27,176 nt of DNA from a virus (IMGVR_UViG_3300044971_001316:1-27176); one strand, 5' to 3'. Counted from the stretch's first letter, positions 2 to 22,421 are shown. Notes: generated from the sequence alone by a model not told the origin. A program made the numbers and translations.

Positions 2-3000
2 GTTGAGCGCACCGCCCCACTCGCCCTTGCGGTTGAAGTTGGTCGTGCCGTCCTTGGCCAGCAGCGCTGCCTGAGTCGGCGTCTTGCCCACCTCCCGCGC
101 CGCCTGGTACAGGGCAAAGCGGGTGGCGTTCTCGGAGGCAGAGCCCATGAACTCCAGCATGCGCGCAGTCAGCGTGGCCAGCTTGTAGGGTGGCAGGGAC
201 TTGATCGCCTCAAAGGTGTTCTTCGACTTGGCCCCGGCCAGCAGCATCTCGTTGCGCAGGTCCTTGTTGATGTCATCCAGCGAGCGCATGTAGAAGCCGC
301 CCGTGATGGAGCCCGCGTTGCGGAACTCTTGGAACCGCTGGTCCATCTGCTGGTTGCCGATGATCTTGTTGGCCGTGCCGCCGATGCCAGCTTCCTGGCG
401 GGCGGATGCCATCAGCGCCTTGCCGTAGTTGGCCAGGTACTTGGCCAGGCCCTTGGGTCCCAGCTCAGCCAATGCTGCGGACGTGCCCGACCACAGCGCA
501 TCGCGTGGGATGTTGATCGCAGCGAACGCTGGGTTGTAGCGGGTCAGGACGTTGCGCAGCCAGTTGTTCCACCAGCCCGACACCGCCAGTGTGGCGCGCT
601 CCAGGCCGCTGGTCTCGTCCTTCCAGGCCTGGCGGATGGCGCGGGCCAGCTCGGGGTCTGCCAGCTTGATGTAGACCTGCTGGCCGCCGACCTTGACGCC
701 GATGGTGTCCTCACCCTTTTCGATGGACTTGGTGTACTGCACGGTGCCCGTGGCCTTGTTGAACGCAGGCTTGTTGCGCTCGACGTCCACGCCCCACAGG
801 TCTGGGTCAGGGTTCGACAGCACGAAGTCCAGCAGGACCTTGCCCACGTCGTTCTTCTCGACCCGCATGATCACGCGCTGGTAGTCGCGGATCACGTTTT
901 CGATCAGGTCGCTGGCCTGGGACTTGCGGCCCATGGCGCGGATGGTCTCGCCGCCGCGCACGTTGATGCCACGGCCGATGCCTGGGCGCATTGCGCCGGT
1001 GTTCTCGTCCACGTTCTCCAGGCCACGCAGGGGGATGTAGTTCTCGTAGGCACCGTCGAGTGCGTCGAACTCATCCTGCGTGATCAGGCCCTCGGCCAGC
1101 ATGACCTGGCGGGTGGTTGATGTGATCGCCATCAGGTCGCGGTGCAGCTCTTCAAACTTCGCCTCGTCGCCGGACGCCTTGGCCAACTGCAGGATGCTCT
1201 TGGCGTGGGCGTCGGTCATGCCGGAGCCGCCGTCGGGCATGCGCTTGTTAATGCTGGCGATGTAGGCGTTGCGCTCCTCGGCGTGCTTGGCGTAGGAGTA
1301 CAGCGCCAGCTCGTCCAGGTCGATGCCAAAGCCCACGGCCTTGTCGATCAGCGGACGCATGACGTTGTCACGGAAGTCGTCCATCGCTGCCTGAATGCGG
1401 CCAGGCATCAGGGTGTTGGCGTCGTAGAAGTTCTGAGCCTCGCTGACTTTGCTGCCCTTCTTGGCCTCGACTGCTTCGATGACGCGCTTCATGCGCAGGC
1501 CGTCGTCCTGCAGCTTGATGCGGGCAGCGTCGACCTTGCCCGTGGCGGGCAGTTCAAAGGTGCTGCCGATCAGCTTCTGGCGGCGGTTGCTTGTGCGAAC
1601 TTCGGGGGTGGCCACGCTTTTCGCTTTGTCGGCAGCGCGGTTGCTGAACATCGGCAGGCCCTGACCCACGGTCTCGCGCATCTTGTCGGTGACGTCGAAG
1701 CCGGGTTGCTGAGAGACCTCTGGGTTTCTTTCATCAATCAGTTCAGCGTTCTTGCCGTCTTCCAACAGCTCTGCAAGCTCCTGACGTGCAACGCCCTCAT
1801 CGCTGTAGCCGTTGTACTCACGACCATCGACATTGATGACCCATTGCACAGCACCGGCCGGCGTCTTTTCACCGTTGCCAACTGGCAGCGGCACACCAAC
1901 GGAGCCGAGCTTCTCGCCACCCAGCTTCGGCAACAGCTTTGTGATAGCTTGCGGGACGATCTGGTCGTAGAAGGCCTTCATGCCTTCGCCTCCGACTTTG
2001 ATGTCTTCGCCGTCAAGGAGGTGCTTGCCCATCACCAAAGGCTGCGCCAGCAAACGCTTTGCGACTTCCTTGCCGACGTAGTCCTCAAGCTGTGACTCGT
2101 CAGTAATCTCGCGCCTCATCACTTTGCGACGGTTGTTATCCCATGCGTCAAGGAGCTTTTCCTCTGGGCTGTATGCGATGGACTGGATCTGCTTGCTCAG
2201 GTCATACCGGTCAGCAGACTGCTCGCCATTGACGAACGCGACCTTGTCGTAGCCACCCTCCACCGCCATCATGGCGATGCGCTTGAGCGCCAGGTTGAGC
2301 CAGCCCTCGGTCTTACCAATGAACGGCGCGGCGGGCACGCCCTTCATCAGAGCGCCCATGCGATCGGCGGCTTTCATCACCGCGTCTTTGGTGCCGAATG
2401 CGCGAGGGAGGCTGTAGCCATCCTCTTTCAGATGAAAGAAGCCCGGCTCTTGTTCAACTATTTTCCAACCAGTCTTGAGCGTATCGCCAGTGCCCTCCTT
2501 CTTTGCGGTTTGACCCCAGTCGGACTGCACCTCTTCCACGAACAGCACGCGCTTGCCGTCGGCATCGGTGCGGTCGTTGATGCGGATATGGGCGAGGACG
2601 TTCTTCTCATCCCAGTGGCTGGACCTGTAGTTGTCGGTGCGCTTTTGCGGCGGCGCTTTCTCAAGCGCATCAACCTCTTTGCGCAGGTTGTCTGCCTTGA
2701 CCTGGAACTGTGCTGCTTTCTCGCTTAGGCCGAGGCCAGCGAACTCGCTAACCATTTCTTCCATCGCTTGCAGCCGCTTGCGCGTGCCTTCAAGTCTGAT
2801 CTGCTGGTTGCCAGTCACCTCAGGCAGCGTGATCAGCAGCTCGCGGTAGTTCTCGCCGCCGGGCAAGGTGTACTTGCCGTACTTGGTGTCGTCAGCATCC
2901 TCGTCGAGCATGCCTTCCAGTTCATCCAGAATCTCCTCGCGGCTCATGGCCTCACCGTTTGCCTCTGGCGCGTAGCCGCGAATGCGGGTGTACTCCTTGA

Positions 3001-6000
3001 CTACCTGCGCGTCATCCATTGCGCTGAAGTCTTTGATGTCGCCAAGCATTTGCTCGGACACCCTCACACCTGAGTCAGCCAAGTAGGCCTGCAGCTCTGC
3101 GCTGGTGACCTTGTCCTTGCCACGCAGGGTGAGGTAGTCCTTGATGCCGGACCACTCCATCTCGTCTTTCTTGACGCCCTGCTTCGGACCATTGGAGTCC
3201 AGCCACAGTGCCCACTGGGAGGCAGGCTGCGTGGCCAGCTTCGCGGGCACGTTGGCGATCGTGCGCTCCAACTGGCTGTAGAACGCAGGCTTGGCTCGGT
3301 TGCTAAACATTGGCATGTCGCCCACACGGCCCTCGGTCCATGCCCACTCAGGCAGGAGCCCAGTCTTCTGGTCGGCAAACACGGTGTCCTCGACCTTGGC
3401 GGTGCGGTTGCTCTCGCCGGTGGGGCCGTAGTTCAGCCAGGAGTTCTGGCCGCGTGTCTCGCTGGTGATGGCCGCCACTGCGCTGCCAGTGAACAGACGG
3501 ACGTGAGCCTGCCAGGCATTCTCTTCGCCCTGGGCGCGGAAGCCGGAGCCCTCAAGCCCATGGCCGAAGGCATCATGCACGGCACGGAACAAGTCGTTGG
3601 CCAGCACGCGCTTGCGTGGGCCGAACAATGAGCCCGATGGCCACTTGATGCCGGTGTCTTCCAGCAGCGGGTTGCTGGCCGGGTCAAAGTCACCCGAACC
3701 GAAACCGTCGTCGGTTGGGAACACGCCCATGACCTTGTTTGCGCGGATGTCGCGCATCGCATTCCAGGGGCTGGATGCGTACTCTTGGTTGTCGGGCTTG
3801 TCGAGATTGATAAACCAGAACTTGTAGCCCGCCTTCTCCAAGGCGCGGTACTGCGCAAGGGTCTGCGCGATCAGTTCTTTGTAGGCCGCCTTGACGCGCA
3901 GATCCTGCGGCGCATGAGGCATGGCCTCGTAGGCCTCGGCAATGCGTGCGGCACGCTCAGGGTCGACCTGGGCGTACTCGGCTTGGCGGCGCAGCTCAAT
4001 GCCATTGTCGCGGGCATACTGCTCGGCCACCGCAACGAGGCGGGGGTCTGGACCAGTGAAGCCGCGAACAGTTGGAGCACCTGGCAGCGCCTCGTTTGCA
4101 CTCAGTCCTCGGACTGCTTGCGCATCTGCTCGTTCTGGTGCTTGAACCTGGCGATCCTGCGCGCCCCCAGCTCCTTGCCCTCGGCTTCCGTCTCCGGCGC
4201 GTTGGCTGAATCGGAGTTGGCCTGCATCGCCCCAGCCGTATTTGTCTGCGTACTCGTCGAAGACTTGCTGGACTCGGGGCGCGAGAACAGCTCTGGCCCA
4301 GTAGAGAACATCGGATCGTCCTTCGGCACCAATCCTTTGTACGTAGCTTTCCCCATTTGGGCTCTCCTTCCAGTTGTTCGTTGGCATGTCGCCGCTTGAG
4401 GCAAACACGCGATACTCAAAATCGGGCAGCACAGACTCCGCCACCTTGACGATGTCGGACTGCAGCTTTTCATTTGTGATGATACCAAAATTCACAACCC
4501 TTATACCATTGGGCGAGCTGACAAACGCAAATTTGTCTTGCCATTCTGGGTGGCCGTTGTCGACCATCCAGTCGCCCACGGCAGTCTCAAGGTCTGCCAC
4601 TTCGCGGGGGTTGAGGGTGCGCCCGACGTTGATGTCGAGGCCGTTGGCGTCACGCTTTGTGCTTGAGTAGAACGGACGGTGCCAGCCCACGCCCTCTTGG
4701 CGGGCCACCAGGCCAGCCACAGCGGCGTAAATGTTGAGTGCCGTGGCCTGGGCTGGGTCGACGTTGGTCTTGCCTTCCGTGCCCTTTGCGGGGGCCATGG
4801 CCACATTGAGCTGGGTGCTCGGCGAGACCTCGCCTTGCCACACGCCGGGAGCCAGGATGTCGCTGTCCACCAGCAAGCCCAAGTACGCCGCCAGCTCATC
4901 GGTGCCGCGCTCGTTATAAAACGCCTTCTGCACAGCCTGCTGGAACTCCACCTGCTGCGCATAGGGTGCGCTGTGGATGCCAGGCAGGACGGCGCTGGTG
5001 CGACCAGGGCGAGCCTCAAAAGACACCTGACCGATGTGACGCATCAGGCCATCGCCGAAGTCAAACTTCGCCTGCTGCGTGTCGTCTTTGGTGACGTCGT
5101 GAGCAAACGAATACTTGAGCCAGTTGTCGCGGTGCTTTTGCTCGTCGAGGATGACGCGGACCTTGCCTTTGCCATCCTTGCCGGGCACGAACTTGATCCA
5201 GCCTTTCTTTTCGCTGGTGCGCTCGGTCTCTTTCTTGACGCCTTTGTTCTCCATGCGGGCCTTCATGGCCACCCAGATCGCGGCCTGCACCTGCTGCGGC
5301 TCCCAGCCCAGCTCCCTGGCCAAGCGGTTGGTTTCGTTCTCCATGAACGAGTACTGGGTGTTTGAGGGCGCGTCGGTTTCGTACTGACCCGCACGCATCA
5401 TCCACATGTCGATCGTGGCACCTTGCTTGCCTGCGGTCGATGGGTCGATCTCACGCAGCAGGTTGAAGAAGAAGTTGCCCGTCTTCTCGCCGGACCAGAA
5501 TGCGTCGACATCGTCGAGCGCGCCCTTGGCCTTGGTGTCCATGACCTCGGTCTTCACGCTGATCGGCTGGCCAGCCTTGTACTGTGCCCATGCGCGCAGC
5601 GCAAACGTGGAGTTGGCGTCGACCTTCGCTTGTGGCGAGTAGATGGCCAGCAGTGCCACGAACTTGCGAGCCTCCTGCATATCGCCGCCCACCATCTTGA
5701 GCACAGCTTTGCCGCTGTTCTCGTACCAGTAGCGGCCTGGCGCGCCCTCGTCTGCGAGCTGGCGCAGGATCTTGCGCAGCGTCGGGATCTTGCCGGGCGT
5801 GTTGAACTTCTCGGGGGCACCCAAGTACTTGCCGTTTTTCATCGGCAGCTTCTCGGTCACCTCTCCGCCTCGGCTGTACGCCACCTGGCGGCCTTCAAGA
5901 GCTGCGCGCACGCGAGGTGCTGCGGCGTTGGTGAAGACGATGCCGTCCTTTGTGACTCGACCCTTGACGTCGTCAGGGACCTGAGCACGGATCTGCTCGG

Positions 6001-9000
6001 GGTCGCCGTAGACGACCATCGTGCCGTCCTTCATAGTGCGCACGTCGAACTCGCCAGCAGCAGTGGTGCCTCGGCGGGACATCCTAATGTCCGGGTTTGC
6101 CGGGTCGAAGATGCCGCTGTTGCCAGTGGCAGACTTGATCTGCTCGGGTCGGAAAACCAAATACTCGCGGAAGGGGCTTCGGCCAACAAGCCCGTCGCTC
6201 ATGCGCGTGATGGCGTCGAATCCTGCCGCTTTATAAATCGACTCGATCACCGACATCGGGCCTCCTTCAATCGCGAGCCAAAGTGACTTCGGATTGAATG
6301 TGCGTGATGCCAAGACTTTTTTGAGATCGCGCTCAATAAACTCTTTTGAGTCGATGGCAAGCTCTTGCGGGTAACCAAGGCTCACCAACTCTTGTATGTT
6401 TTTTGGTATGGCAGACTTGATTGCAGCAAGCTGATCGTCTGTGATGTTGTCCGCATCAAGAATGTTTTCGGCCTTGATATACACGGGCAAGACATTCATG
6501 TCCTCTTCTTTGCGCTCGGCAAAGCGAGATGCTGCATCTGCGTCGTCGGTGAAGTAAATGCCTTCTCCAAGGCTTCCTCCATCGGATGGTTTGAACGCGG
6601 TGATGTCGGCACCAGTCCCGTGATAGACCACCATTGGCTTGCCAGCGTCATCCACAACCTTAGAGTTGCCGAAGAACTTCTTGAACTCAGGCGTCTCAGG
6701 AGCAGCGCGGTTGGATGCCATCGGCTGAGCATCACTCACCAGTGCAACGTCGGGCGTCAGGCCCTGAGCCTGCATCGACTCAGCGTAGGCCGTGCTCAGC
6801 AGGTCGCGGGCCTTGGCCACGTCGGTGATGTACTTGCTGACGAACTCGTCGCCGTACTGCTCCTTGGCACCGCTGATGATCGTGTTCAGTTTGGCCAAGA
6901 TGGTCTTGGCCACCTCGCCAAACTCTGCGTTGCCCATCTTCGTGCGCAGGTCCTGCCAGAAGTCTTCGCGCTTGCTGATCGCTTGGACCATGAACGCGGG
7001 AATCTCCTCGTCCAGCAGCGCATCGTTCTTTGCGTCGTAATCGAACTCCTCTGCAAACTCAGTGCGGCGATCTTGACGGAAGTACTGGGCCAACTGCGTG
7101 TTGAGCGCCTTGCGCTGTGGCTCGGGCAGCGTGTGATAGATCTCGTGCATCGCGACCGACAGCGGCGCGTCATCCGCATCGTTGGCAACGAAGATGTTCT
7201 TGCTGTCGCCGGGCAGCATGAACCCGTTGGGCAGCGATGCTGGGGTGTCCGCTTTCAGGTAGGTGACCGTGCGGCCAAGCAGGCGGGCGACCGCGCTGGC
7301 AGCCTGCTGCTGCTCTGTCAGCGGCGCGGTGTCCACCTCGGCATCGACGCCGGTGCTGGCGCTGAGCGTCGTGATGGCCTTGCCGATGGCGCGCAGGGGC
7401 GCGGGCGGGGCGAGCCTGAGTGAGGTCTTCAGGCCAGCAGTTGCAGCACCCTCTGGCGTACCAAGGGCTCCAGGTCGCTGAGCTTGAGCGTTGGGTCCAG
7501 TCGCCACTGAACTGACCCCAACGTCTCCTCCGCTTTGCGCCTGCGCTGCACTTCTGCTTGCCAGCGGCTGAAGTACTCCTGCGCTTGTTGCTCCACTGAT
7601 GGCAGATGCTTGCTGTCCTTGCGTTTGGCCTTGGAGGGCTTGAGGGGTTTGAGTGCCAAGGGTCGTCTCCGTTGGTTTGATGACCCAGCCACCGTCCATC
7701 TTGACAGTGCTGTAGCCGGTGATGCCGTTCTGCTGCGCATAGACGGCGGCGGTTTGTTGGGTGCTGAAAGGCTTGCCGCTGGGAGCGGTGATCGGCTCAG
7801 CGGCGGGTGCAGCCTGCGTCGGCTGGGTAACCCCGGCCCCTGTCTCCATGGTGCCCACAGTGGGAGCAGGCTGCGTATTCTGTTGCTCGTATCCGGCCAA
7901 GCGGAACTTCCCGCTGGGCATCTGCTCCACGCTCCATTCAAGGGAGGGGAACATGCGCTGGCGGCCAGGCAGGGCCTGCGCCGCGTCAGCCTCGGTCACG
8001 TAGCCGTCGCCCTTGCGGCCGACCCACTGCTCAACCGGCTGGACTACAGCATTGTTATTTTCTGGGGCCGCGATGGCAGCCTCGGTGCGCGCCAGCAGAT
8101 CCTGGTCGGTGGCACGGGGTGAGACTCGCGGCAGCGTCAGGCTGGCAGCCTGTTGTCCGCCTGCACTTCCAGCAGGAACATTCGCCCCAGCATTGGCTGC
8201 AGGCAGTCCGGCATTTCCACCAGCGAGTTGTCCGGTGCCAGCAGCATCAAGTCCTGGAATGCCCAGGCCTCCGCCACGCTGATCGCTCGCTGGGAAACCG
8301 CCCACTGCAGGCGCGGCTCCAGCTCCGCCAAGTGTGCTGACATCGGTCGTCTCCGAACGGTTGGGGATAGGCACCACGATCGGCACCAGACCGGCTTCAT
8401 CGGTCGGGCTGCCTGCAGGGGTGAAGTTGATCTCTCGCGCTGGCGCGGAAGGCCCGACGTCCGCAGCCCGGCGCATCGTCTGCTCGGGGCTGATCAGGGT
8501 GGGGTCGTAGCTGTTGACGTCGAAGAGCCCAACCGCCTGGCGCTCTGCCGCGAAGTCGGGTGCTTGCGCTGCGCGGGCCTCTTGGTACTGGCTGGCTGCG
8601 CCGACCGCGCTGAATGGCGCAGAGGTGACGAGCGCAGTGGCCATCGCCTCGGGAACGCCTTCAGATAGCTTCTGGCTTGGGTCGACCGTGCGCGAGATGA
8701 CGTTGCCGCCAAACTGTGTGCCGCCCTCTTCAAGCTGCTCGCCGATCACGTCCTTGGCCAGCATCTTGCCAGCGCCTGCAACTGTCAGCGCCTCGGCTGT
8801 GGCGCGGCCCAGGCCCCTGGAAGCCACGGCGGCCTCGGCCCCCATGAACCCCAGCAAGCCCAGAGGAGCGGTCACCAGCGCGGCCATACGGGCCTTGGCG
8901 GTGGCAATCTCCACGATTGCTTGCTCGCTTGTCTTACCGCTGGCCACCAACTCTTGGTAGTCAGGGTTCTCTTGCCAAACGCTTAGGGGCGTTTGCCTTG

Positions 9001-10180
9001 GGTCGGTCAGCTTGTCGTACACGCCACCGGCCGCGTCGCCGCCAGCCATGACCATGGACGCGCCGACACCACCAGCGGTTGTACCGGCAGCGCGTGCGCC
9101 TGCCTGAATGGCACCACCACTGATCGCCTCACCCAACGCAACTGTCGGGCTGGCACGGCCGACAAGGCCAACGCCGCCAGCCGAGGCAGCGCCAACCAGG
9201 CGGGATGCGCCAACGATGCCCAAGAAGTTGGGGATCTGCTTGACTGCCTCAGACAGCCCCAGCGCTGGGCTTGTGACAAGTTGCACCACGGTCGCGGCGT
9301 ACTTGTCGAGGAACCCGTCCTCGTTCTGCACGCGCTCACGCAACTGTTCGCGCTGTGCCTTGAGGACGTCAGACTCTTGGGCCTGCAGTTCCTTTTGTGT
9401 TTTTCTGAGCGTGCTGGCGATCTCACTGCTTGGGGCAATGATGTTGATCGGCAACTGCACCAAACCGACAGCGCCCTGGCTCAGGCTGGACAGCGTGTCC
9501 GCCGCCCACTCTCCTGCCGTGCGGAACTCGTCTGCCTTTTCGTCCCGAACAGCTTGAACAATTTCAGGCTTGTTGGCCGAATCGACGATGTCTGCAAAGC
9601 TCTTCTCGCCTCGGGCGTCCATCGCCTTGACGACTTTGTTGACCGTGGGGTCTTGGCTGGCCATCTGGCCACGGCTGCTGCGCACTGAGTCGGCTGCTGC
9701 GACAGCTTTCTGGCTGATTGGGCCAGCACCGTAGGACAAGCGCTTGTCGACTTCAGCCTGACGCTCTTGTGGCGTTGGCTCATAGCCGTCCATGACGCTC
9801 TTGAACTCTGGCTTCAAAGCAGCGCCAATGCTGGCAATCACTCCAGTCTTGGGCTTCTGCGATGTGGCTGAGCCACCGCCGATCCCCAGCGGGTCCACGG
9901 GCTTAGGCAGCGCAGACGACAGGCGAGCGATCAGGCCCGGCTTCTCGGGGGCCTTGTAGCGAGCTGCCAAGCGGGCAGTCTCGTCGCCGGTATCGGGCAC
10001 GGGGGCAAGAGTCTGCTGAGTGTCTGCCAGGAACTGGCCACGCACAGCTTCGACTTCATCCTCTGAGACCCGAGGCGCGACAACCTCATTGAAATACTGG
10101 TTGCGAGCCTCTTCTTGTTCGTCAAAGGAGAGGGCCTGGAATGCGGGGTTCGCCGCTACGTCAGACCATTTCATTGCCAT
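2..10180 (-). CDS. Giant phage ejection/DNA-transfer protein, large polyvalent protein type (>3390 aa, 3' end outside window)
   Basis: ATG at 10180, 3 nt after the TAA of the upstream gene. Manual translation and the absence of any closed ORF in this frame show it is open to the window edge. N-terminus MAMKWSDVAANPAFQALSFDEQEEARNQYFNEVVAPR resembles podophage DNA-transfer proteins. Internal motifs: HEIYH..EE (7133-7147, ~7005); VVYHGT..GIYFT..EYLVFRPEQIKSATGN (ART-PolyVal-like, ~6090-6700); HDAFGH (3560-3577); LFVEEVQSDW (~2520-2545); C-terminal HAEERN..YIPLRG..NIPRD..ENATRF..TNFNRKG typical of the region preceding LPD38. Confidence 0.92.
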   Translation of the reverse strand, partial: MAMKWSDVAANPAFQALSFDEQEEARNQYFNEVVAPRVSEDEVEAVRGQFLADTQQTLAPVPDTGDETARLAARYKAPEKPGLIARLSSALPKPVDPLGIGGGSATSQKPKTGVIASIGAALKPEFKSVMDGYEPTPQERQAEVDKRLSYGAGPISQKAVAAADSVRSSRGQMASQDPTVNKVVKAMDARGEKSFADIVDSANKPEIVQAVRDEKADEFRTAGEWAADTLSSLSQGAVGLVQLPINIIAPSSEIASTLRKTQKELQAQESDVLKAQREQLRERVQNEDGFLDKYAATVVQLVTSPALGLSEAVKQIPNFLGIVGASRLVGAASAGGVGLVGRASPTVALGEAISGGAIQAGARAAGTTAGGVGASMVMAGGDAAGGVYDKLTDPRQTPLSVWQENPDYQELVASGKTSEQAIVEIATAKARMAALVTAPLGLLGFMGAEAAVASRGLGRATAEALTVAGAGKMLAKDVIGEQLEEGGTQFGGNVISRTVDPSQKLSEGVPEAMATALVTSAPFSAVGAASQYQEARAAQAPDFAAERQAVGLFDVNSYDPTLISPEQTMRRAADVGPSAPAREINFTPAGSPTDEAGLVPIVVPIPNRSETTDVSTLGGAGAAPAVGGFPASDQRGGGLGIPGLDAAGTGQLAGGNAGLPAANAGANVPAGSAGGQQAASLTLPRVSPRATDQDLLARTEAAIAAPENNNAVVQPVEQWVGRKGDGYVTEADAAQALPGRQRMFPSLEWSVEQMPSGKFRLAGYEQQNTQPAPTVGTMETGAGVTQPTQAAPAAEPITAPSGKPFSTQQTAAVYAQQNGITGYSTVKMDGGWVIKPTETTLGTQTPQALQGQTQGQQASAISGATSAGVLQPLASRSAAQAQSGGDVGVSSVATGPNAQAQRPGALGTPEGAATAGLKTSLRLAPPAPLRAIGKAITTLSASTGVDAEVDTAPLTEQQQAASAVARLLGRTVTYLKADTPASLPNGFMLPGDSKNIFVANDADDAPLSVAMHEIYHTLPEPQRKALNTQLAQYFRQDRRTEFAEEFDYDAKNDALLDEEIPAFMVQAISKREDFWQDLRTKMGNAEFGEVAKTILAKLNTIISGAKEQYGDEFVSKYITDVAKARDLLSTAYAESMQAQGLTPDVALVSDAQPMASNRAAPETPEFKKFFGNSKVVDDAGKPMVVYHGTGADITAFKPSDGGSLGEGIYFTDDADAASRFAERKEEDMNVLPVYIKAENILDADNITDDQLAAIKSAIPKNIQELVSLGYPQELAIDSKEFIERDLKKVLASRTFNPKSLWLAIEGGPMSVIESIYKAAGFDAITRMSDGLVGRSPFREYLVFRPEQIKSATGNSGIFDPANPDIRMSRRGTTAAGEFDVRTMKDGTMVVYGDPEQIRAQVPDDVKGRVTKDGIVFTNAAAPRVRAALEGRQVAYSRGGEVTEKLPMKNGKYLGAPEKFNTPGKIPTLRKILRQLADEGAPGRYWYENSGKAVLKMVGGDMQEARKFVALLAIYSPQAKVDANSTFALRAWAQYKAGQPISVKTEVMDTKAKGALDDVDAFWSGEKTGNFFFNLLREIDPSTAGKQGATIDMWMMRAGQYETDAPSNTQYSFMENETNRLARELGWEPQQVQAAIWVAMKARMENKGVKKETERTSEKKGWIKFVPGKDGKGKVRVILDEQKHRDNWLKYSFAHDVTKDDTQQAKFDFGDGLMRHIGQVSFEARPGRTSAVLPGIHSAPYAQQVEFQQAVQKAFYNERGTDELAAYLGLLVDSDILAPGVWQGEVSPSTQLNVAMAPAKGTEGKTNVDPAQATALNIYAAVAGLVARQEGVGWHRPFYSSTKRDANGLDINVGRTLNPREVADLETAVGDWMVDNGHPEWQDKFAFVSSPNGIRVVNFGIITNEKLQSDIVKVAESVLPDFEYRVFASSGDMPTNNWKESPNGESYVQRIGAEGRSDVLYWARAVLAPRVQQVFDEYADKYGWGDAGQLRFSQRAGDGSRGQGAGGAQDRQVQAPERADAQAVRGLSANEALPGAPTVRGFTGPDPRLVAVAEQYARDNGIELRRQAEYAQVDPERAARIAEAYEAMPHAPQDLRVKAAYKELIAQTLAQYRALEKAGYKFWFINLDKPDNQEYASSPWNAMRDIRANKVMGVFPTDDGFGSGDFDPASNPLLEDTGIKWPSGSLFGPRKRVLANDLFRAVHDAFGHGLEGSGFRAQGEENAWQAHVRLFTGSAVAAITSETRGQNSWLNYGPTGESNRTAKVEDTVFADQKTGLLPEWAWTEGRVGDMPMFSNRAKPAFYSQLERTIANVPAKLATQPASQWALWLDSNGPKQGVKKDEMEWSGIKDYLTLRGKDKVTSAELQAYLADSGVRVSEQMLGDIKDFSAMDDAQVVKEYTRIRGYAPEANGEAMSREEILDELEGMLDEDADDTKYGKYTLPGGENYRELLITLPEVTGNQQIRLEGTRKRLQAMEEMVSEFAGLGLSEKAAQFQVKADNLRKEVDALEKAPPQKRTDNYRSSHWDEKNVLAHIRINDRTDADGKRVLFVEEVQSDWGQTAKKEGTGDTLKTGWKIVEQEPGFFHLKEDGYSLPRAFGTKDAVMKAADRMGALMKGVPAAPFIGKTEGWLNLALKRIAMMAVEGGYDKVAFVNGEQSADRYDLSKQIQSIAYSPEEKLLDAWDNNRRKVMRREITDESQLEDYVGKEVAKRLLAQPLVMGKHLLDGEDIKVGGEGMKAFYDQIVPQAITKLLPKLGGEKLGSVGVPLPVGNGEKTPAGAVQWVINVDGREYNGYSDEGVARQELAELLEDGKNAELIDERNPEVSQQPGFDVTDKMRETVGQGLPMFSNRAADKAKSVATPEVRTSNRRQKLIGSTFELPATGKVDAARIKLQDDGLRMKRVIEAVEAKKGSKVSEAQNFYDANTLMPGRIQAAMDDFRDNVMRPLIDKAVGFGIDLDELALYSYAKHAEERNAYIASINKRMPDGGSGMTDAHAKSILQLAKASGDEAKFEELHRDLMAITSTTRQVMLAEGLITQDEFDALDGAYENYIPLRGLENVDENTGAMRPGIGRGINVRGGETIRAMGRKSQASDLIENVIRDYQRVIMRVEKNDVGKVLLDFVLSNPDPDLWGVDVERNKPAFNKATGTVQYTKSIEKGEDTIGVKVGGQQVYIKLADPELARAIRQAWKDETSGLERATLAVSGWWNNWLRNVLTRYNPAFAAINIPRDALWSGTSAALAELGPKGLAKYLANYGKALMASARQEAGIGGTANKIIGNQQMDQRFQEFRNAGSITGGFYMRSLDDINKDLRNEMLLAGAKSKNTFEAIKSLPPYKLATLTARMLEFMGSASENATRFALYQAAREVGKTPTQAALLAKDGTTNFNRKGEWGGALN
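4102..4356 (-). CDS. Overprinted small protein, 84 aa (MGKATYKGLVPKDDPMFSTGPELFSRP...), in +1 frame of the giant ORF
   Basis: Strong SD GAAGGAGAG-cccaa-ATG. The last ~32 codons almost all end in G/C, while the host frame uses rare codons (GTA, AGG, GGA, CGA, AGA) over the overlap. Confidence 0.62.
   Translation of the reverse strand: MGKATYKGLVPKDDPMFSTGPELFSRPESSKSSTSTQTNTAGAMQANSDSANAPETEAEGKELGARRIARFKHQNEQMRKQSED
7429..7659 (-). CDS. Overprinted small basic helical protein, 76 aa (TTG start; MALKPLKPSKAKRKDSKH...RVLQLLA), in +1 frame of the giant ORF
   Basis: SD-containing CGGAGACGACCc directly before TTG at 7659. Protein-like helical sequence with GC3-rich codons; the host frame here is a low-complexity Q/G/A/S linker. 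Confidence 0.62.
   Translation of the reverse strand: MALKPLKPSKAKRKDSKHLPSVEQQAQEYFSRWQAEVQRRRKAEETLGSVQWRLDPTLKLSDLEPLVRQRVLQLLA
8137..8343 (-). CDS. Overprinted small acidic/hydrophobic protein, 68 aa (MSAHLAELEPRLQWAVSQRAISVAEAWAFQD...), in +1 frame of the giant ORF
   Basis: SD-containing CGGAGACGACCg directly before ATG at 8343. Codon usage (CTG, GAG, CAG, GCG, GAC) matches the phage's real genes; the host frame degenerates to a G/A-rich linker (GGAGAAPAVGG...AGSAGG). Confidence 0.7.
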   Translation of the reverse strand: MSAHLAELEPRLQWAVSQRAISVAEAWAFQDLMLLAPDNSLVEMPDCLQPMLGRMFLLEVQADNRLPA

Positions 10181-11810: not shown

Positions 11811-12518
11811 TCAGCCCCAGAGGCGTGTACCGACGTTGGTGTTGTAGCGTTTGCGCTCGTCTTCAGCCATCTGGACCTGCTGGTCCTGCTGCTTCTTGGC
11901 CCCGTACCCCTGCATGGCACCGCCAATCAGTTGGGTGCCGCCGGAGATCAGCGCGGGGGCTGTGTAGGGGCTGGACATGATGCCGCCGACCAAGCCCTTG
12001 CCTGCACCTGACGCCAGTTGGAGGCCGGTCGTGGCTGCGTTGGTAGCCGCAGGGAATGCGGTGGCCGCAGCGGCGTTCGTTGCCTGCGTGGCTCCGGTGA
12101 TGCCAGCGTTCTGCGTTGCAAGCATCTGGGCCTGCGACATGCCGTTGGTGATCGCACCTCCTGCGGCACCTGCCAAAGCACTGCCACCCGTAGCAGCACC
12201 AGCGCCGTAGGCACCAGTGAAACCAGAGCCGATTGAGCTGGCCGCGCCACTGAGGCCGCCGGTGCCCGTCAGCGCACCCCATGCTCCAGAAATCCCAGAC
12301 GCCGCACTGGATAGCCCCGCGCTCGCCCCCGACAGGAACCCGGCACCAGAGGTCGCGCCTCCGATCCCACCCATCAGCGCCGCACCACCGAAGTAGACGG
12401 CCGCCGCCGTGATCAGAATCTTGCCGAGCTTGGAGCTGGCCACCTTTTTGACGGCGTTGGTCACGCCCTTGACGACCTTGCTGACCGCACGGCCCACCGA
12501 CTTGACTGCCTTGCTCAT
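11811..12518 (-). CDS. Gly/Ala-rich putative DNA pilot/ejection protein, 235 aa
   Basis: SD TAGGAG; ATGA overlap. Basic amphipathic N-terminus, hydrophobic segment, long G/A-rich body and Gln-rich C-terminus, the usual layout of small podophage ejection proteins. Confidence 0.78.
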   Translation of the reverse strand: MSKAVKSVGRAVSKVVKGVTNAVKKVASSKLGKILITAAAVYFGGAALMGGIGGATSGAGFLSGASAGLSSAASGISGAWGALTGTGGLSGAASSIGSGFTGAYGAGAATGGSALAGAAGGAITNGMSQAQMLATQNAGITGATQATNAAAATAFPAATNAATTGLQLASGAGKGLVGGIMSSPYTAPALISGGTQLIGGAMQGYGAKKQQDQQVQMAEDERKRYNTNVGTRLWG

Positions 12519-12964
12519 GTTGCACTCCTAACGTATGTCAGGTTCAGGCTTTCACGAGCAAAGCCCAACCGATTTAAAAACTTCACCAGACGCGGATCTG
12601 CGCCGGGCTCCAATTCCATGACCGCCACTTTGATGGCAGAGCGGCTCTTGACCCACCGTGCGAACTCGCGCAGCAGCGGGATTGCAGCACCCGGCACCCG
12701 GGTGTAGTACAGCAGCACCGAGCACTGCAGCTTGCTGAACCAGAACGATTCCTGCACGCATGCGGCCACCGATGCCACCACCTTGCCGTCCTGCTCCGCG
12801 ACCCACATGAAGTGGGCGGGGTTCAGGCAGGTGCGTGCGGTGTCGGCCATCGCCTCGCGGTTGATCTTCACCGGCAGCGGGTCGTGCGACACCGACTCCA
12901 CCGCGATGTCCACGATCGCGGGGATGTCATCAAGTTTGGCCTTGCGGCAGACGATCTTGGTCAT
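12515..12964 (-). CDS. GNAT-fold (acetyltransferase-like) protein, 149 aa
   Basis: CRKAKLDDIPAIVDI...WVAEQDGKVVA...LLREFARW...FLNRLGF is a GNAT pattern. A GNAT-like gene next to internal virion genes is typical of podophages. Confidence 0.8.
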   Translation of the reverse strand: MTKIVCRKAKLDDIPAIVDIAVESVSHDPLPVKINREAMADTARTCLNPAHFMWVAEQDGKVVASVAACVQESFWFSKLQCSVLLYYTRVPGAAIPLLREFARWVKSRSAIKVAVMELEPGADPRLVKFLNRLGFARESLNLTYVRSAT

Positions 12965-15653: not shown

Positions 15654-16277
15654 TCACGCCACCCCCGTCGTCAGGACGGCCAAAGCGTGGTTGATGTGCT
15701 TCTTGCGATCCTCCAGACCGATCGTGCCGCCGTTGATCCTCTTAGTCAGGCCGGTCCAGTCCCCTGCCTCGGCCAGGGCGTTGAGCCTTTGGGTGTCCCA
15801 GAACCATCCGGCGGTGAGCGCAGCATACTGGGGCGTGGCCACCAGATCGGGCTCCATGATGAAGTCCACACCGAGGGCCTTGCTTGCGTGGTGGTAGTTC
15901 GCCGCGCCGGTCAATTGCAAGATTCCGCGACCGCGAAAACGGAAGCCATCGCCCGACGCCTCATCGCGGTTGTTCATGCGGTTGCCGTAGATGCGGTTGG
16001 CGATCTTCTTGGGCTGGCGCTCGTACTCGGCCGCATCCTCGGGCGTGAAGCCCCAGGCGCGACGGGGCGTGCGCGGGAAGAGCTTGAGCAGTGTTGCCGC
16101 CCGATAGTTCAGGTTCTCCTCCAGCACGCAAAAGTTGGCGCTCTCGTGCGCGCACTGGCCAATGAACGCCGCCTTCTGCCTGGTGGTGCTGATGCCAAAC
16201 CGGGCGAAGGTTTCGTTGAGCGGGTCGACCCACTGCGCAGAGATGTGGAGTTGCGATAGTTGTTCAGCGTTGAGCAT
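15654..16277 (-). CDS. Endolysin, glycoside hydrolase family 19 (chitinase-like), 207 aa
   Basis: AAFIGQCAHES, EENLNY, GDGFRFRGRGILQLTG..NY, WFW and TKRINGG..GL.DR motifs; adjacent to spanins. Confidence 0.93.
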   Translation of the reverse strand: MLNAEQLSQLHISAQWVDPLNETFARFGISTTRQKAAFIGQCAHESANFCVLEENLNYRAATLLKLFPRTPRRAWGFTPEDAAEYERQPKKIANRIYGNRMNNRDEASGDGFRFRGRGILQLTGAANYHHASKALGVDFIMEPDLVATPQYAALTAGWFWDTQRLNALAEAGDWTGLTKRINGGTIGLEDRKKHINHALAVLTTGVA

Positions 16278-16794
16278 TGATGGTGGTCCTCATCTCTTCG
16301 TATGCCGCGATGCACGAGTTCAGTTGATTGATGGCCCGGTCTCCGTCGGCTGCAATCTTCGCAATCAGCTCTAAGGTTTCGCGCTCGGACTCGCTGGGGC
16401 CGGGTTCACTGGCACCAGAATCTGCGTCAGGCGCTGGGTTAGGTTCGCCTCTCGCTTCGTGCCGATCTCGGGGGGCAGTGGCGGGATATGCGGTGGCTTG
16501 TACGCAACTGGGGGCTGGGAGGCGCACCCTGCCAGCACGAATGGCAGCAGTGAGATCAGTTTGCTTTTTGTCGATGACATCGTTGGCCCTTCTCAGTTCA
16601 GTTTCTTTGGCTTGCACCACCTCGGCCAGCTTTTGCTCGGTCTGCCTGGCCTCTTCGTTCTTCTGCGCGATCGCTGCCTGCATGTCGGCGTCACGGTCGT
16701 ACCAACCATTGTGATACCCGTAGCGATAGATGCCGAACCCGGCGAGCGCAGCAGCCAGCAGCGCCCAGGGCAGCCATGAGACCCTCAACATCAC
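16264..16794 (-). CDS. Rz-like inner-membrane spanin, 176 aa
   Basis: N-terminal TM helix, coiled coil, IRAGRVRL, C-terminal GDRAINQLNSCIAAY; contains an embedded lipoprotein ORF. Confidence 0.85.
   Translation of the reverse strand: MMLRVSWLPWALLAAALAGFGIYRYGYHNGWYDRDADMQAAIAQKNEEARQTEQKLAEVVQAKETELRRANDVIDKKQTDLTAAIRAGRVRLPAPSCVQATAYPATAPRDRHEARGEPNPAPDADSGASEPGPSESERETLELIAKIAADGDRAINQLNSCIAAYEEMRTTINAQR
16371..16580 (-). CDS. Rz1-like outer-membrane spanin lipoprotein embedded in Rz, 69 aa
   Basis: Lipoprotein signal with lipobox LAG-C, Pro-rich mature part, fully nested in the +1 frame of Rz. Confidence 0.82.
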   Translation of the reverse strand: MSSTKSKLISLLPFVLAGCASQPPVAYKPPHIPPLPPEIGTKREANLTQRLTQILVPVNPAPASPSAKP

Positions 16795-19556: not shown

Positions 19557-22421
19557 TCAGGCTATTGCCAAAAATATGTAGGTTGCTGCGTTGACGTTCA
19601 CGTTGGTAGCAGCCACTTGGTTGACAACAAAGCCTGTGCTGTCAGTGTCGATGGTGTCGTTGCTTGTCACTTCAGCAGCAGTGGTGTTGAGGCTAAGGTG
19701 TGGATCATTACCAGCCACAATGCCTCGCGCTGTGTCCCATACGTACCAATCACCAGTGCTGTCAGTGCGTTTGATCATTACGAACCTAGCGCCACCAGTG
19801 AAGCCGCAGTTGATGGTTTGACTGCTACCGTTGCCTGTGTAGTTACCAACCTTGCTCACGCCGGGACAGGAGGCAAAGAGGTATGCAACGTAGGTTGAAC
19901 CATTGGCATTTACCATTGAATTTGATCCAACAGAAAACACAGACGCTGTTGGAGATGTGTTGTTCCAAACCACACTTTGAACAATAAGTGTTCCAGTTGT
20001 GTTTAACCGCAAAGAGCCTGTGTTACCAGTTGCGGCAGTATAAACACCCCAATCTTCAACGCCACTTCGCATTTTTACAATCATTATCTCAGGCACAGCT
20101 CCTAAGTTATGCGCTACGGTCCTGTTAGCCCCCGTCCCCGTATAGCAAACCTCATCAAAGAAGCCGGGGGCGCGTTGGAAAACCCAGTTAACATAAGTTG
20201 TATCGCTGTTGTTAATTGCAGTATTAAATTGATCTGCGCCAAGCGAATAACTGTTATTATTAAATGCTGTAATAGAGTTGTTGCTTGTTGGAGATGAGTT
20301 ATCAGTTTCCGAGCTTGTAAAAGCACTTGCTAAATATCTGTTTATACCCCTTAATCTGTCATACCAACCAGTACTATTAGTAGTACTTCTTGCTTTTGAG
20401 ACAACAAGGTCTGGTCTAGCAGTAAGTCCAGAAACTGTTGCAATAGCGGCTGTTCCTGATCTAGTAACAAGATTCAATACACTCGTCCCCGTTGTCGGCA
20501 CTTTCATCGGGCCACGGCGTATGGCTACGTAAAAGTAGGTGCCATTGTTTGGCATCACCTCACCAACACCAGAGAAGCCTGTTGCTGTTGGATAGCCCCC
20601 GGTAGTTACAGTATCAGTAGTTGGGTTTGTTAAAGCGTTATCGTTGACTGTAAGTTGTATATCAGCGTTAGTTGTTTGTGTATTGTTCCATCTACGAAAC
20701 GTATCCAACATACGCCAGTCTGTGCCGACACTGGAGCCCTTGATCAATAAAAACTGCGGCTCCCATCCCAAGGTGACGCTGTAGTTACCAGATCCATCGG
20801 TTGTAAGCGATCCGCACTGAATGACACTATCGATTGCTGTGTCATGAGCGAACACATAAGCCACATAACTCGCGCCCGTAGAGTTTGTGAGGGCGTTCCT
20901 GACAGAAAAATTTGACGGCGAAACAGCGGGTACGTTTGTATTTATCGGATCAGTATCAGTGGCGTTACTGTTAATCGCTATAGAACCGTTGAGGCTTCTA
21001 TGCCACACCAGCCCAGCCCCTGTGCCATCCAATCGTTTGATGATGATCATTCCCGGCGCAACGCCTAGCGAATGAGATATGACGTTACTTGCTGGAGCCG
21101 TCCAAGTAATAGCATCTGTTGAGGTTGCAGCATCTTGAGCGCCAAGAACAAACTTAGTGCCATCCCACGTAATGGCATTGATCTGGGCATTAAGAATTAC
21201 AGTTCTTAACTGTGCTCGCGCTGTCCAAGTAATGCCATCAGTTGATGTAGCAAGATATGATTCATTGGCCCCTACCACAAACTGTGATCCGTTGTGAATA
21301 ATGGACTCACATTGCCTTGAACTTACGGCTGTAGCCAGTGAAGCTCTAAGTGTCCATGTGCCAGTGTCAGGAGAAGTAGCGCACGAACCGTTGCCACCTA
21401 CTGCTACATAAAGCCCCGCAGCAAAGCTAAGGGCTTTGACTTGGTTTTGATTAACCGCCCTCATTTGAGTTGATCGGCTTGTCCAGTTGCTTCCACCGTT
21501 GGTGGATATAGCACAATATCCCGATGCGCCAGCACACAAAATAGTACCTCCATTGGACACTATGGCGAACATGTCACTGGAAGAAACTTGCGCAGCTAAA
21601 GTGGTGATATTTGTCCAAGTAAAACCACTACCTGATATAGCGCATATACCACTACTACCTACGGCTACAAAAACACCATGAGTGGAGTTCCATGTAACTG
21701 CATTGCAGGTTGTATAACTCGTTTGGACCGCGAGACTGACCCTGTTGGTCCATGTAATTCCATCTGGTGAAGTCACACATGAACCACTATCGCCAACCAC
21801 ACAAAATACACTACCGTTCCAAGCAATTGCTTGAGGGCTACCGTTTGTCCAAGCTGTTGCAAATGATGGCCTCTCGGTCCATGTGATTCCATCCGTTGAC
21901 GTAGCACAAATCTCTGCACCGCTATAACCAACAGCCACATAGATTGAGCCATTCCATATCATGTCTGCTGGTGTTGTTCTAAGAACATTCGACAGACTTG
22001 TTCCTGCTCCGGTGTACGTCACGACATCAAAGAACTTTGGCTGCTTTCTAAAAGTCCAAGCTGCGTAGGTGGCATTATTTGTATTGATGGTAGACAACGA
22101 CCCGATATTGAATCCCGTGGATGAAAAAGAAGTCACCCCCGTTGCTTGTGTTGTTTGAGCTGTTGTTTTATTAATTGCTAAATCGAAAGTTGCCCCGCGA
22201 GCAGTATCGTATAAGGCATGATTTGTAGCTGCGCTTCTGCTTTTAATCCAAACCAAACCACCCTTGCCCGCCAGATCAATTCCGTTGGTGATCGTCTGCG
22301 TAGAGCCATTGCCTGTGTACAACCAAGTGCTAAATACGTCTTCGATGTAGGTAGGACCAGCAGCCGCACCACCGCCAAAAGCGTCATACGATGCTGCCCC
22401 TGATGTTGCTTGTAATGGCAT
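19557..22421 (-). CDS. Tail/virion structural protein, 954 aa, with repeated YTGNG..G..P..(V/I)IK..W..YD..RG modules and an inserted propeller
   Basis: Several YTG(N/T)G-type repeats plus seven (A/V)TSxDGxTW-type repeats; follows the tail fibre; visibly lower GC than its flanks. Confidence 0.85.
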   Translation of the reverse strand: MPLQATSGAASYDAFGGGAAAGPTYIEDVFSTWLYTGNGSTQTITNGIDLAGKGGLVWIKSRSAATNHALYDTARGATFDLAINKTTAQTTQATGVTSFSSTGFNIGSLSTINTNNATYAAWTFRKQPKFFDVVTYTGAGTSLSNVLRTTPADMIWNGSIYVAVGYSGAEICATSTDGITWTERPSFATAWTNGSPQAIAWNGSVFCVVGDSGSCVTSPDGITWTNRVSLAVQTSYTTCNAVTWNSTHGVFVAVGSSGICAISGSGFTWTNITTLAAQVSSSDMFAIVSNGGTILCAGASGYCAISTNGGSNWTSRSTQMRAVNQNQVKALSFAAGLYVAVGGNGSCATSPDTGTWTLRASLATAVSSRQCESIIHNGSQFVVGANESYLATSTDGITWTARAQLRTVILNAQINAITWDGTKFVLGAQDAATSTDAITWTAPASNVISHSLGVAPGMIIIKRLDGTGAGLVWHRSLNGSIAINSNATDTDPINTNVPAVSPSNFSVRNALTNSTGASYVAYVFAHDTAIDSVIQCGSLTTDGSGNYSVTLGWEPQFLLIKGSSVGTDWRMLDTFRRWNNTQTTNADIQLTVNDNALTNPTTDTVTTGGYPTATGFSGVGEVMPNNGTYFYVAIRRGPMKVPTTGTSVLNLVTRSGTAAIATVSGLTARPDLVVSKARSTTNSTGWYDRLRGINRYLASAFTSSETDNSSPTSNNSITAFNNNSYSLGADQFNTAINNSDTTYVNWVFQRAPGFFDEVCYTGTGANRTVAHNLGAVPEIMIVKMRSGVEDWGVYTAATGNTGSLRLNTTGTLIVQSVVWNNTSPTASVFSVGSNSMVNANGSTYVAYLFASCPGVSKVGNYTGNGSSQTINCGFTGGARFVMIKRTDSTGDWYVWDTARGIVAGNDPHLSLNTTAAEVTSNDTIDTDSTGFVVNQVAATNVNVNAATYIFLAIA

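Follow-up and report, generated by a model that had tools for sequence, protein, structure and literature searches.

The 11-nucleotide sequence CGGAGACGACC occurs twice within a giant phage gene, each time just before a nested reading frame, which raises the question of whether this gene carries a deliberately built operon inside its own coding sequence. The first-pass annotation of this locus had answered yes, proposing an injected effector polyprotein whose linkers encode its own small immunity or assembly proteins (nested genes A, B, and C). The window analyzed here is the whole stretch of DNA, a virus record of 27,176 bases. Its relevant features are as follows.

2..10180, minus strand: host giant gene, an ORF for a putative ejection/polyvalent protein of the IVP-D/DarB-like type
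4102..4356, minus strand: gene A, +1 frame, ATG start with AAGGAG, 84 aa (frame score 22.7)
6107..6652, minus strand: ART-PolyVal domain in the host frame (Pfam, E = 2.1e-23, residues 1177-1358)
6731..7408, minus strand: zincin-like metallopeptidase (putative MPTase-type) domain in the host frame, with the HExxH motif at residue 1012
7429..7659, minus strand: gene C, +1 frame, TTG start, 76 aa, stop ending at 7429
7661..7671, minus strand: Shine-Dalgarno sequence (SD; GGAG, 7 nt from the start) and spacer of gene C, read T-E-T-T in the host frame
7671..7889, minus strand: optional small host-frame module, skipped by contigs of two sequencing runs, which are joined at 7670
8137..8343, minus strand: gene B, +1 frame, ATG start, 68 aa, stop ending at 8137
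8345..8355, minus strand: SD (GGAG, 7 nt from the start) and spacer of gene B, read S-E-T-T in the host frame
11811..12964, minus strand: upstream operon genes, a GNAT acetyltransferase (IVP-A position) and a weakly T7 gp14-like gene (IVP-B position)

The giant gene and its reading frames

The late genes lie on the minus strand and comprise genes for the tail and fibres, a set of lysis genes, the GNAT acetyltransferase, the weakly T7 gp14-like gene, two more genes, and then the giant ORF, which begins with an ATG at 10180, exceeds 3393 codons, and runs off the window end. The gene order corresponds to that of the internal-virion-protein (IVP) operons in the available part of PMC4819975, where the IVP-D operons likewise combine an acetyltransferase, a small IVP-B-like gene, and large genes. 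The acetyltransferase matched phrog_1249 (E = 1.3e-13), and the T7 gp14-like gene gave a sub-threshold match to PF24072 (E = 0.0057). Besides the ART-PolyVal domain, Pfam identified DUF7178 in the giant protein. The HExxH domain, the first folded host domain after gene C, had no Pfam match, and its H, E, and H were invariant in 13 aligned homologues; we infer the name MPTase-type from this motif and the available part of PMC5512222. The C-terminal 513 aa had matches in 337 phage records, including Bcep22 gp75, and the giant proteins of Stx phages were also similar at the C-terminus, while a sequence search of the PDB returned no match for the giant protein. Several conflict-related domains and the HExxH motif are thus joined in one chain, resembling the phage polyvalent proteins described by Iyer et al. 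2017 (available part of PMC5512222), which are likewise multidomain, combine an HExxH peptidase motif with ART-PolyVal, and belong to a virion operon. Given these domains, the C-terminal relatives, and the IVP operon order, we therefore treated the host as an ejection-type polyvalent protein. By analogy, it would be packaged and injected; the DarB-like protein of the Bcep22-like phage JC1 is virion-associated by mass spectrometry, according to the available part of PMC9144972.

DNA nearly identical to the window came mostly from lake-water metagenomes, and none of the sequencing runs listed with such DNA was of RNA. Elsewhere in the window, the G+C content fell to 0.45-0.48 at 20001-22000, within a 954-aa tail-fibre-like gene, compared with about 0.62 in the remainder, which suggests that the low-G+C part of this gene is a swapped segment.

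Along the giant gene, the codon-likelihood profile switched to the +1 frame only at B, C, and 4375-4100, and a self-trained detector returned exactly three SD-led +1 ORFs, namely B, C, and 4356-4102. The last was taken as the gene A of the first-pass annotation. The host frame was stop-free across all nested genes, forming a low-complexity linker at B and C, and T at host codon position 1 was depleted in B and C (0.015 and 0.026, respectively, compared with 0.107 gene-wide). None of 200 codon shuffles yielded a scored SD-led +1 ORF, compared with the three observed, so the expectation that nested ORFs exceed codon-shuffled controls was borne out. The use of the same +1 frame by all three, which had been cited in favor of a design, is true but carries little weight: the +2 frame offers 14-fold fewer start codons (5.6 vs 81.8 per 1000 codons; 23 vs 192 in the window), and a shared +1 frame is therefore expected, being largely imposed by the genetic code.

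The repeated 11-mer and the initiation sites

The description of the repeat itself was accurate: both exact copies end 1 nt before a +1-frame start and encode E-T-T in the host frame, at offsets of 1825 and 2509 from the host ATG (both 1 mod 3). One further match with one mismatch was present at 6007 on the plus strand, while shuffled sequences contained a mean of 0.54 matches with at most one mismatch. As many as 96 distinct 11-mers occurred at least twice in the giant gene, and the repeated 11-mer by itself is unremarkable. Among the +1-frame start codons, its SD pairing strength ranked 8th of 191, and the accessibility of the starts was middling (ranks 43 and 39 of 191 for genes B and C, respectively). 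No internal promoter or terminator signals stood out above shuffled sequences.

Could the 11-mer nevertheless be a dedicated cis-element, such as a copied initiation cassette, a regulator, or a recombination site, that is kept identical within a genome? Random B/C pairs would show the exact identity seen here in about 0.6% of cases (it occurred in 2 of 342 cross-genome pairs), the B and C sites of the window lineage share a GGRGACRACC-like consensus, and module boundaries coincide with the 5' edge of both sites. However, the two sites were identical in just one of the 19 genomes with both genes, the window itself, and copies were not significantly more alike within genomes than across them (mean distances of 5.26 and 5.65, respectively; permutation p = 0.14). 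The exact 11-mer preceded 2 of 104 C copies and 1 of 21 B loci (the window alone), with one further occurrence in locus L001, which lies outside the 104-copy C set. Gene A has a different SD, and the variant without 7671-7889, the module from which the second 11-mer takes its first base, has this base altered. Moreover, the 11-mer followed by ATG had 100 distinct matches in IMG/VR, of which 28 started ORFs of at least 88 codons and 30 started short ones, the remaining 42 being one recurring family judged to be an off-frame reading; none of the four matches inside a long host-register frame was gene-like. Such a cis-element is accordingly a very improbable explanation.

Since the likeness of B and C sites was no greater within than across genomes, each site appears to have been inherited in its own family from a related consensus. 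GGAGAC may be a typical betaproteobacterial SD; in 400 kb of one Variovorax genome, it occurred in 2 of 14 GGAG-led genes, a small number of genes, compared with a background of 3.3%, and there was one genome-wide pattern match. The 11-mer before both starts most likely reflects a common SD-plus-spacer consensus, and we read the exact identity as two related consensus sites coinciding in the lineage of the window. The inference of deliberate design from the identical sequence thus does not hold.

Conservation of the nested genes

All 21 B loci had a start codon, an SD, and an aligned stop, and were nested; 18 lay in host frames of at least 1000 codons, and the other three were snippets open at both ends. 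The pooled pN/pS across the 21 loci was 0.70 in the nested frame and 1.30 in the host frame, with distant pairs saturated, and was 0.08 for the closest pair. Between the window and L001, the nested frame had a pS of 0.32 and a pN of 0.03, compared with 0.00 and 0.14, respectively, in the host frame. A profile search of 1.84 billion representatives retrieved 34 proteins of 65-79 aa, and the hydrophobic core of B was conserved over 30% identity. Gene B encodes a predicted three-helix protein (AF2 pLDDT 86.6) that ends in N-x-L-P-x. It had no match in Pfam or PHROG, and neither Foldseek nor VIA matched its fold to the PDB (best Z 3.8), which does not imply a new fold.

Direct tblastn searches with B, C, and D (a further nested family, see below) returned no match among cultured phages; the link of B to these was reached via a fold match and a wider B profile. 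The best viral fold match by Foldseek was A8HNW3 (110 aa, TM 0.75, E = 0.086), which, judging from its length, is probably BA3_0004. BA3_0004 (GenBank EU124666, 110 aa), a hypothetical protein matched by the wider B profile at E = 1.3e-11, is an annotated CDS in the +1 frame inside BA3_0002, and its annotated start is probably too far upstream. B homologues were nested at the same place in the cultured phages BA3, VvAW1, and FGH, those of the latter two being frames without annotation; B occurs in both beta- and gammaproteobacterial phages. In Thalassomonas phage BA3, the gene that carries the B homologue, BA3 0002, is listed as an IVP-D (T7 gp16-like) homologue in the available part of Hardies et al. 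(PMC4819975), where nested genes are not mentioned. Judging from its sequence, a second annotated +1 CDS in BA3_0002 (BA3_0003, L437:5036-5380) resembles a chance frame, and the detector did not score it. In one contig assigned to an archaeal genome bin (L419:3176-3700, plus strand), a giant gene of 2472 aa contained B, another basic +1 ORF, and C; this is probably a mis-binned phage contig.

Gene C consists of a strongly conserved basic N-terminal peptide (ALKPLKPSK...) followed by a lineage-specific extension, which is predicted to be helical in the window (AF2 pLDDT 76.8) and had no match in a fold search. Copies ranged from about 21 to 83 aa, most being lysine-rich peptides of 21-28 aa with a P/Q-rich tail. 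All 31 C loci from the protein search were nested in frames of 1643-4411 codons. Among 123 matches to a C pattern, 82 lay in host frames of at least 500 codons and 39 were snippets of at most 630 bases with the host frame running off an end, leaving two exceptions. When the pattern was searched without a start codon, GTG, TTG, or ATG directly preceded the peptide in 104 of 105 distinct matches, and the sole start-less match sat in no long ORF. An SD of at least 4 nt preceded 89 of 104 C copies (108 distinct copies minus L099, L127, and two with little upstream DNA); where the start was GTG or TTG, 79 of 82 had an SD. Codons 11-17, which lie outside the search pattern, had a pN/pS of 0.38 in the nested frame and 0.84 in the host frame.

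Variant contigs of three lake-metagenome runs aligned exactly to 7429-7670, that is, from the C stop to its SD, directly upstream of which the optional module lies. Among the substitutions in the 40 of 129 rows listed, those inside B and C favored nested position 3 (13/22), whereas those between the two genes favored host position 3 (10/16). Approximately 250 IMG/VR stretches contained the C pattern, and the named genome records with C and a start codon were nearly all betaproteobacterial. In two P1-like contigs, both from one metagenome-assembled genome, C is a free-standing gene located between an hdf-like DarA_N gene, which it follows directly, and an InPase+DarA_N gene downstream. At L407:1176-1247, the free-standing copy begins two bases after the hdf-like gene, and L411 is arranged likewise. 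In locus L099, an unrelated gene of 166 aa, located among putative head genes, carried C nested in its +1 frame (at 740, reversed strand). A likeness of C to the N-termini of ribosomal proteins was considered and had no support from Pfam or the PDB.

By every sequence test that was run, genes B and C are real nested genes: their starts and ribosome-binding sites are conserved, the host frame remains open across them, and the nested frame is under purifying selection. An opposing view is that the peptides are functionless, the +1 ORFs either providing only ribosome traffic that adjusts how much giant protein is made or how it folds, or arising as a side effect of constraints on the host frame. 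The wide variation in C length would fit this view, and the start and SD of gene A could follow from host W-K-E codons. The synonymous excess in the +1 frame, the fixed length of B (65-69 aa), its conserved hydrophobic core, and its confidently predicted fold run counter to it, and we regard it as the least probable of the explanations considered, with hardly any chance of being correct.

The case for gene A is weaker, given that its first 28 codons coincide with part of a conserved host domain. Its ATG and open frame were kept in four relatives (L071, L275, L277, and L278), the nested frame was clearly favored in two of the four pairs, so that the evidence for selection is mixed, and host-frame T-avoidance was absent.

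Surveying giant genes for SD-led +1 ORFs, as had been proposed, revealed nested families at conserved places across many phages. Family D, a +1 protein of 56-58 aa with a conserved EW-L-L core, was present in L047 (6061-6231, minus strand) and 40 other hosts, being commoner than B in the sample, and ended in LQ, LH, or VH in all 36 aligned members. Family E (60-87 aa, P/Q/K-rich) was nested in the +1 frame upstream of C in L006, L008, L010, and L032. Homology of B and D was considered and found no support (hhalign probability 0.4), and their commonest last residues differ. Further nested +1 families of 60-63 aa were seen beside later cargo domains in L064, L071, L076, L098, and L276. Giant genes of cultured phages also contained unannotated SD-led +1 ORFs with strong frame scores: two of other families each in Bcep22 gp75 (L440, codons 869 and 1462) and phage Eline gp53 (L441, codons 845 and 1413), and one at codon 728 of VvAW1 (L438); those at codons 1462, 1413, and 728 were alike by eye. 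The claim of nested genes in the linkers of a large polyvalent gene therefore stands for B and C, whose layout is conserved in many phages, and is less firm for A.

Possible roles of the nested genes

In the hosts, the N-terminal region was followed by the slot, in which B, D, E, or no gene was found, then by C, and then by the first HExxH domain. In 86 hosts, the slot upstream of C held B in 13, D in 41, and E in 4, with B and D never at the same locus, and the first HExxH domain was downstream of C in 77 and upstream in one; conversely, C followed B in 20 of the 21 B loci. Across 97 hosts, every first-HExxH cluster was pure for B, D, or E, while the N-terminal clusters mixed them; linkage alone could explain this purity. 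No B, D, or E was found in 29 of the 97 hosts, and the slot therefore appears to be dispensable or to hold undetected families.

The reading that we favor, by a modest preference, combines an ordinary SD-plus-spacer with conserved, internally initiated genes B and C that act as small helpers of the giant protein. Its parts differ in strength. On the evidence of two maintained frames with amino-acid conservation in the +1 frame, B and C are very probably translated, through internal initiation by ribosomes on the late mRNA of the giant gene, and they are probably, with nearly the same assurance, co-expressed with the giant protein late in infection. That they would then help in making or loading the giant ejection protein is our tentative best guess. 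In such a scheme, B may act as a small helical protein that chaperones or guards the adjoining, peptidase-led part of the cargo, and the lysine-rich C peptide may bind either DNA or an acidic partner while the head is being filled. When B was modeled in complex with the HExxH and N-terminal host domains, the score was 0.00, which is evidence neither way. The constant place of the nested genes ahead of the first HExxH domain, the pure HExxH clusters, and the free-standing C behind hdf-like genes speak for this reading; the empty slots, the copy of C in an unrelated gene, its absence behind the hdf-like gene of Rb1, the pairing of near-identical B with a divergent HExxH domain in L001, and the lack of any match to a characterized protein speak against it.

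As a best guess, we rank this helper role ahead of a role directed at the host cell, which we consider somewhat unlikely, and the latter ahead of immunity. If directed at the host cell, B and C would be real genes acting in defence evasion, takeover, or lysis timing, and the linker would simply offer them room for coding within a late operon that is expressed strongly, without any functional link to the giant protein. The free-standing copies of C and the one within another gene, the nearly exclusive betaproteobacterial origin of the C records, which would fit a target in that host lineage, the association of B with several N-terminal and HExxH families, and the sometimes empty slot all agree with such a role. 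It is less readily reconciled with the order and position being kept in very divergent hosts, with the presence of B in phages of two proteobacterial classes, and with the free-standing C copies adjoining Dar genes for head-internal proteins.

Immunity, in which each nested gene would neutralize a toxic cargo domain (ART or peptidase) in the producing cell, appears improbable. The co-segregation of slot families with first-HExxH clusters and the nested families adjoining later cargo domains speak for it. Nevertheless, ART was absent, according to Pfam, from the B-bearing hosts L002, L004, L076, and BA3, and present without any B or D found in L079; immunity to ART is therefore unlikely, and this part of the earlier partner-protein model is not upheld. 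For HExxH, co-inheritance was mixed: 21 of the 54 members of the largest cluster had no slot gene found, and the B of L001 was 94% identical to that of the window while its HExxH domain was missed by the MPTase profile of the window, which argues against a tight specific interface. A 22-aa basic peptide that is invariant across unrelated cargoes would also be a poor fit for a specific antitoxin.

Embedded genes as a kind are already known. The Rz/Rz1 spanin genes of lambda-like phages are the classical case, Rz1 being a lipoprotein subunit that partners the product of its host gene. Bcep22 gp80/gp81 are annotated as an Rz/Rz1-type pair. In the window, a 69-aa ORF (16371-16580, minus strand) lies out of frame in an Rz-like spanin gene (16264-16794), has a lipoprotein-type signal and a cysteine, and is likely Rz1. 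Like Rz1, B and C are complete small genes that lie on the strand of their host but in another frame; each has a start and an SD to itself, and both frames are kept. Unlike Rz1, they have neither a signal nor a lipobox cysteine and are nested in an ejection gene rather than in Rz, several such genes share one host, the stretch of host that they overlap is a passive linker, and their partnership with the host protein is a candidate one. Nor did B or C have a sequence or fold match to a characterized protein in Pfam, PHROG, and PDB searches. With respect to the P1 Dar system (hdf/darA), the parallel is the position of free-standing C behind an hdf-like DarA_N gene in the two P1-like contigs, while the cultured phage Rb1 has no C peptide after its hdf-like gene; in P1, Hdf and DarA form a lining of the capsid and are in contact with DNA, according to the available part of PMC12810830. 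A literature search, mainly of open-access main texts, retrieved no account of genes nested within those for polyvalent or ejection proteins. The main text of PMC5512222 does not use the word "overlap," and its available part uses "nested" for a hairpin fold and mentions no out-of-frame linker genes. One member of family B is already annotated in GenBank without comment.

More broadly, the linker before the first peptidase domain of podophage giant ejection genes may hold a conserved hidden two-gene unit, in which one helical partner can stand in for another (B, D, or E) alongside the near-invariant, lysine-rich C. This unit would constitute an undescribed loading or maturation-control system for injected polyvalent proteins, and C would link it to the Dar head proteins that some P1-like phages have. 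We offer this as a speculative possibility that goes beyond the reading favored above. The 11-mer cassette itself is of little importance. The cultured carriers BA3, FGH, and VvAW1 make the function of the nested genes testable. Gene callers drop genes that lie within longer ones, and phage annotations consequently lack a conserved layer of predicted small late proteins. What appear to be floppy linkers in polyvalent proteins owe their form in part to a second reading frame.
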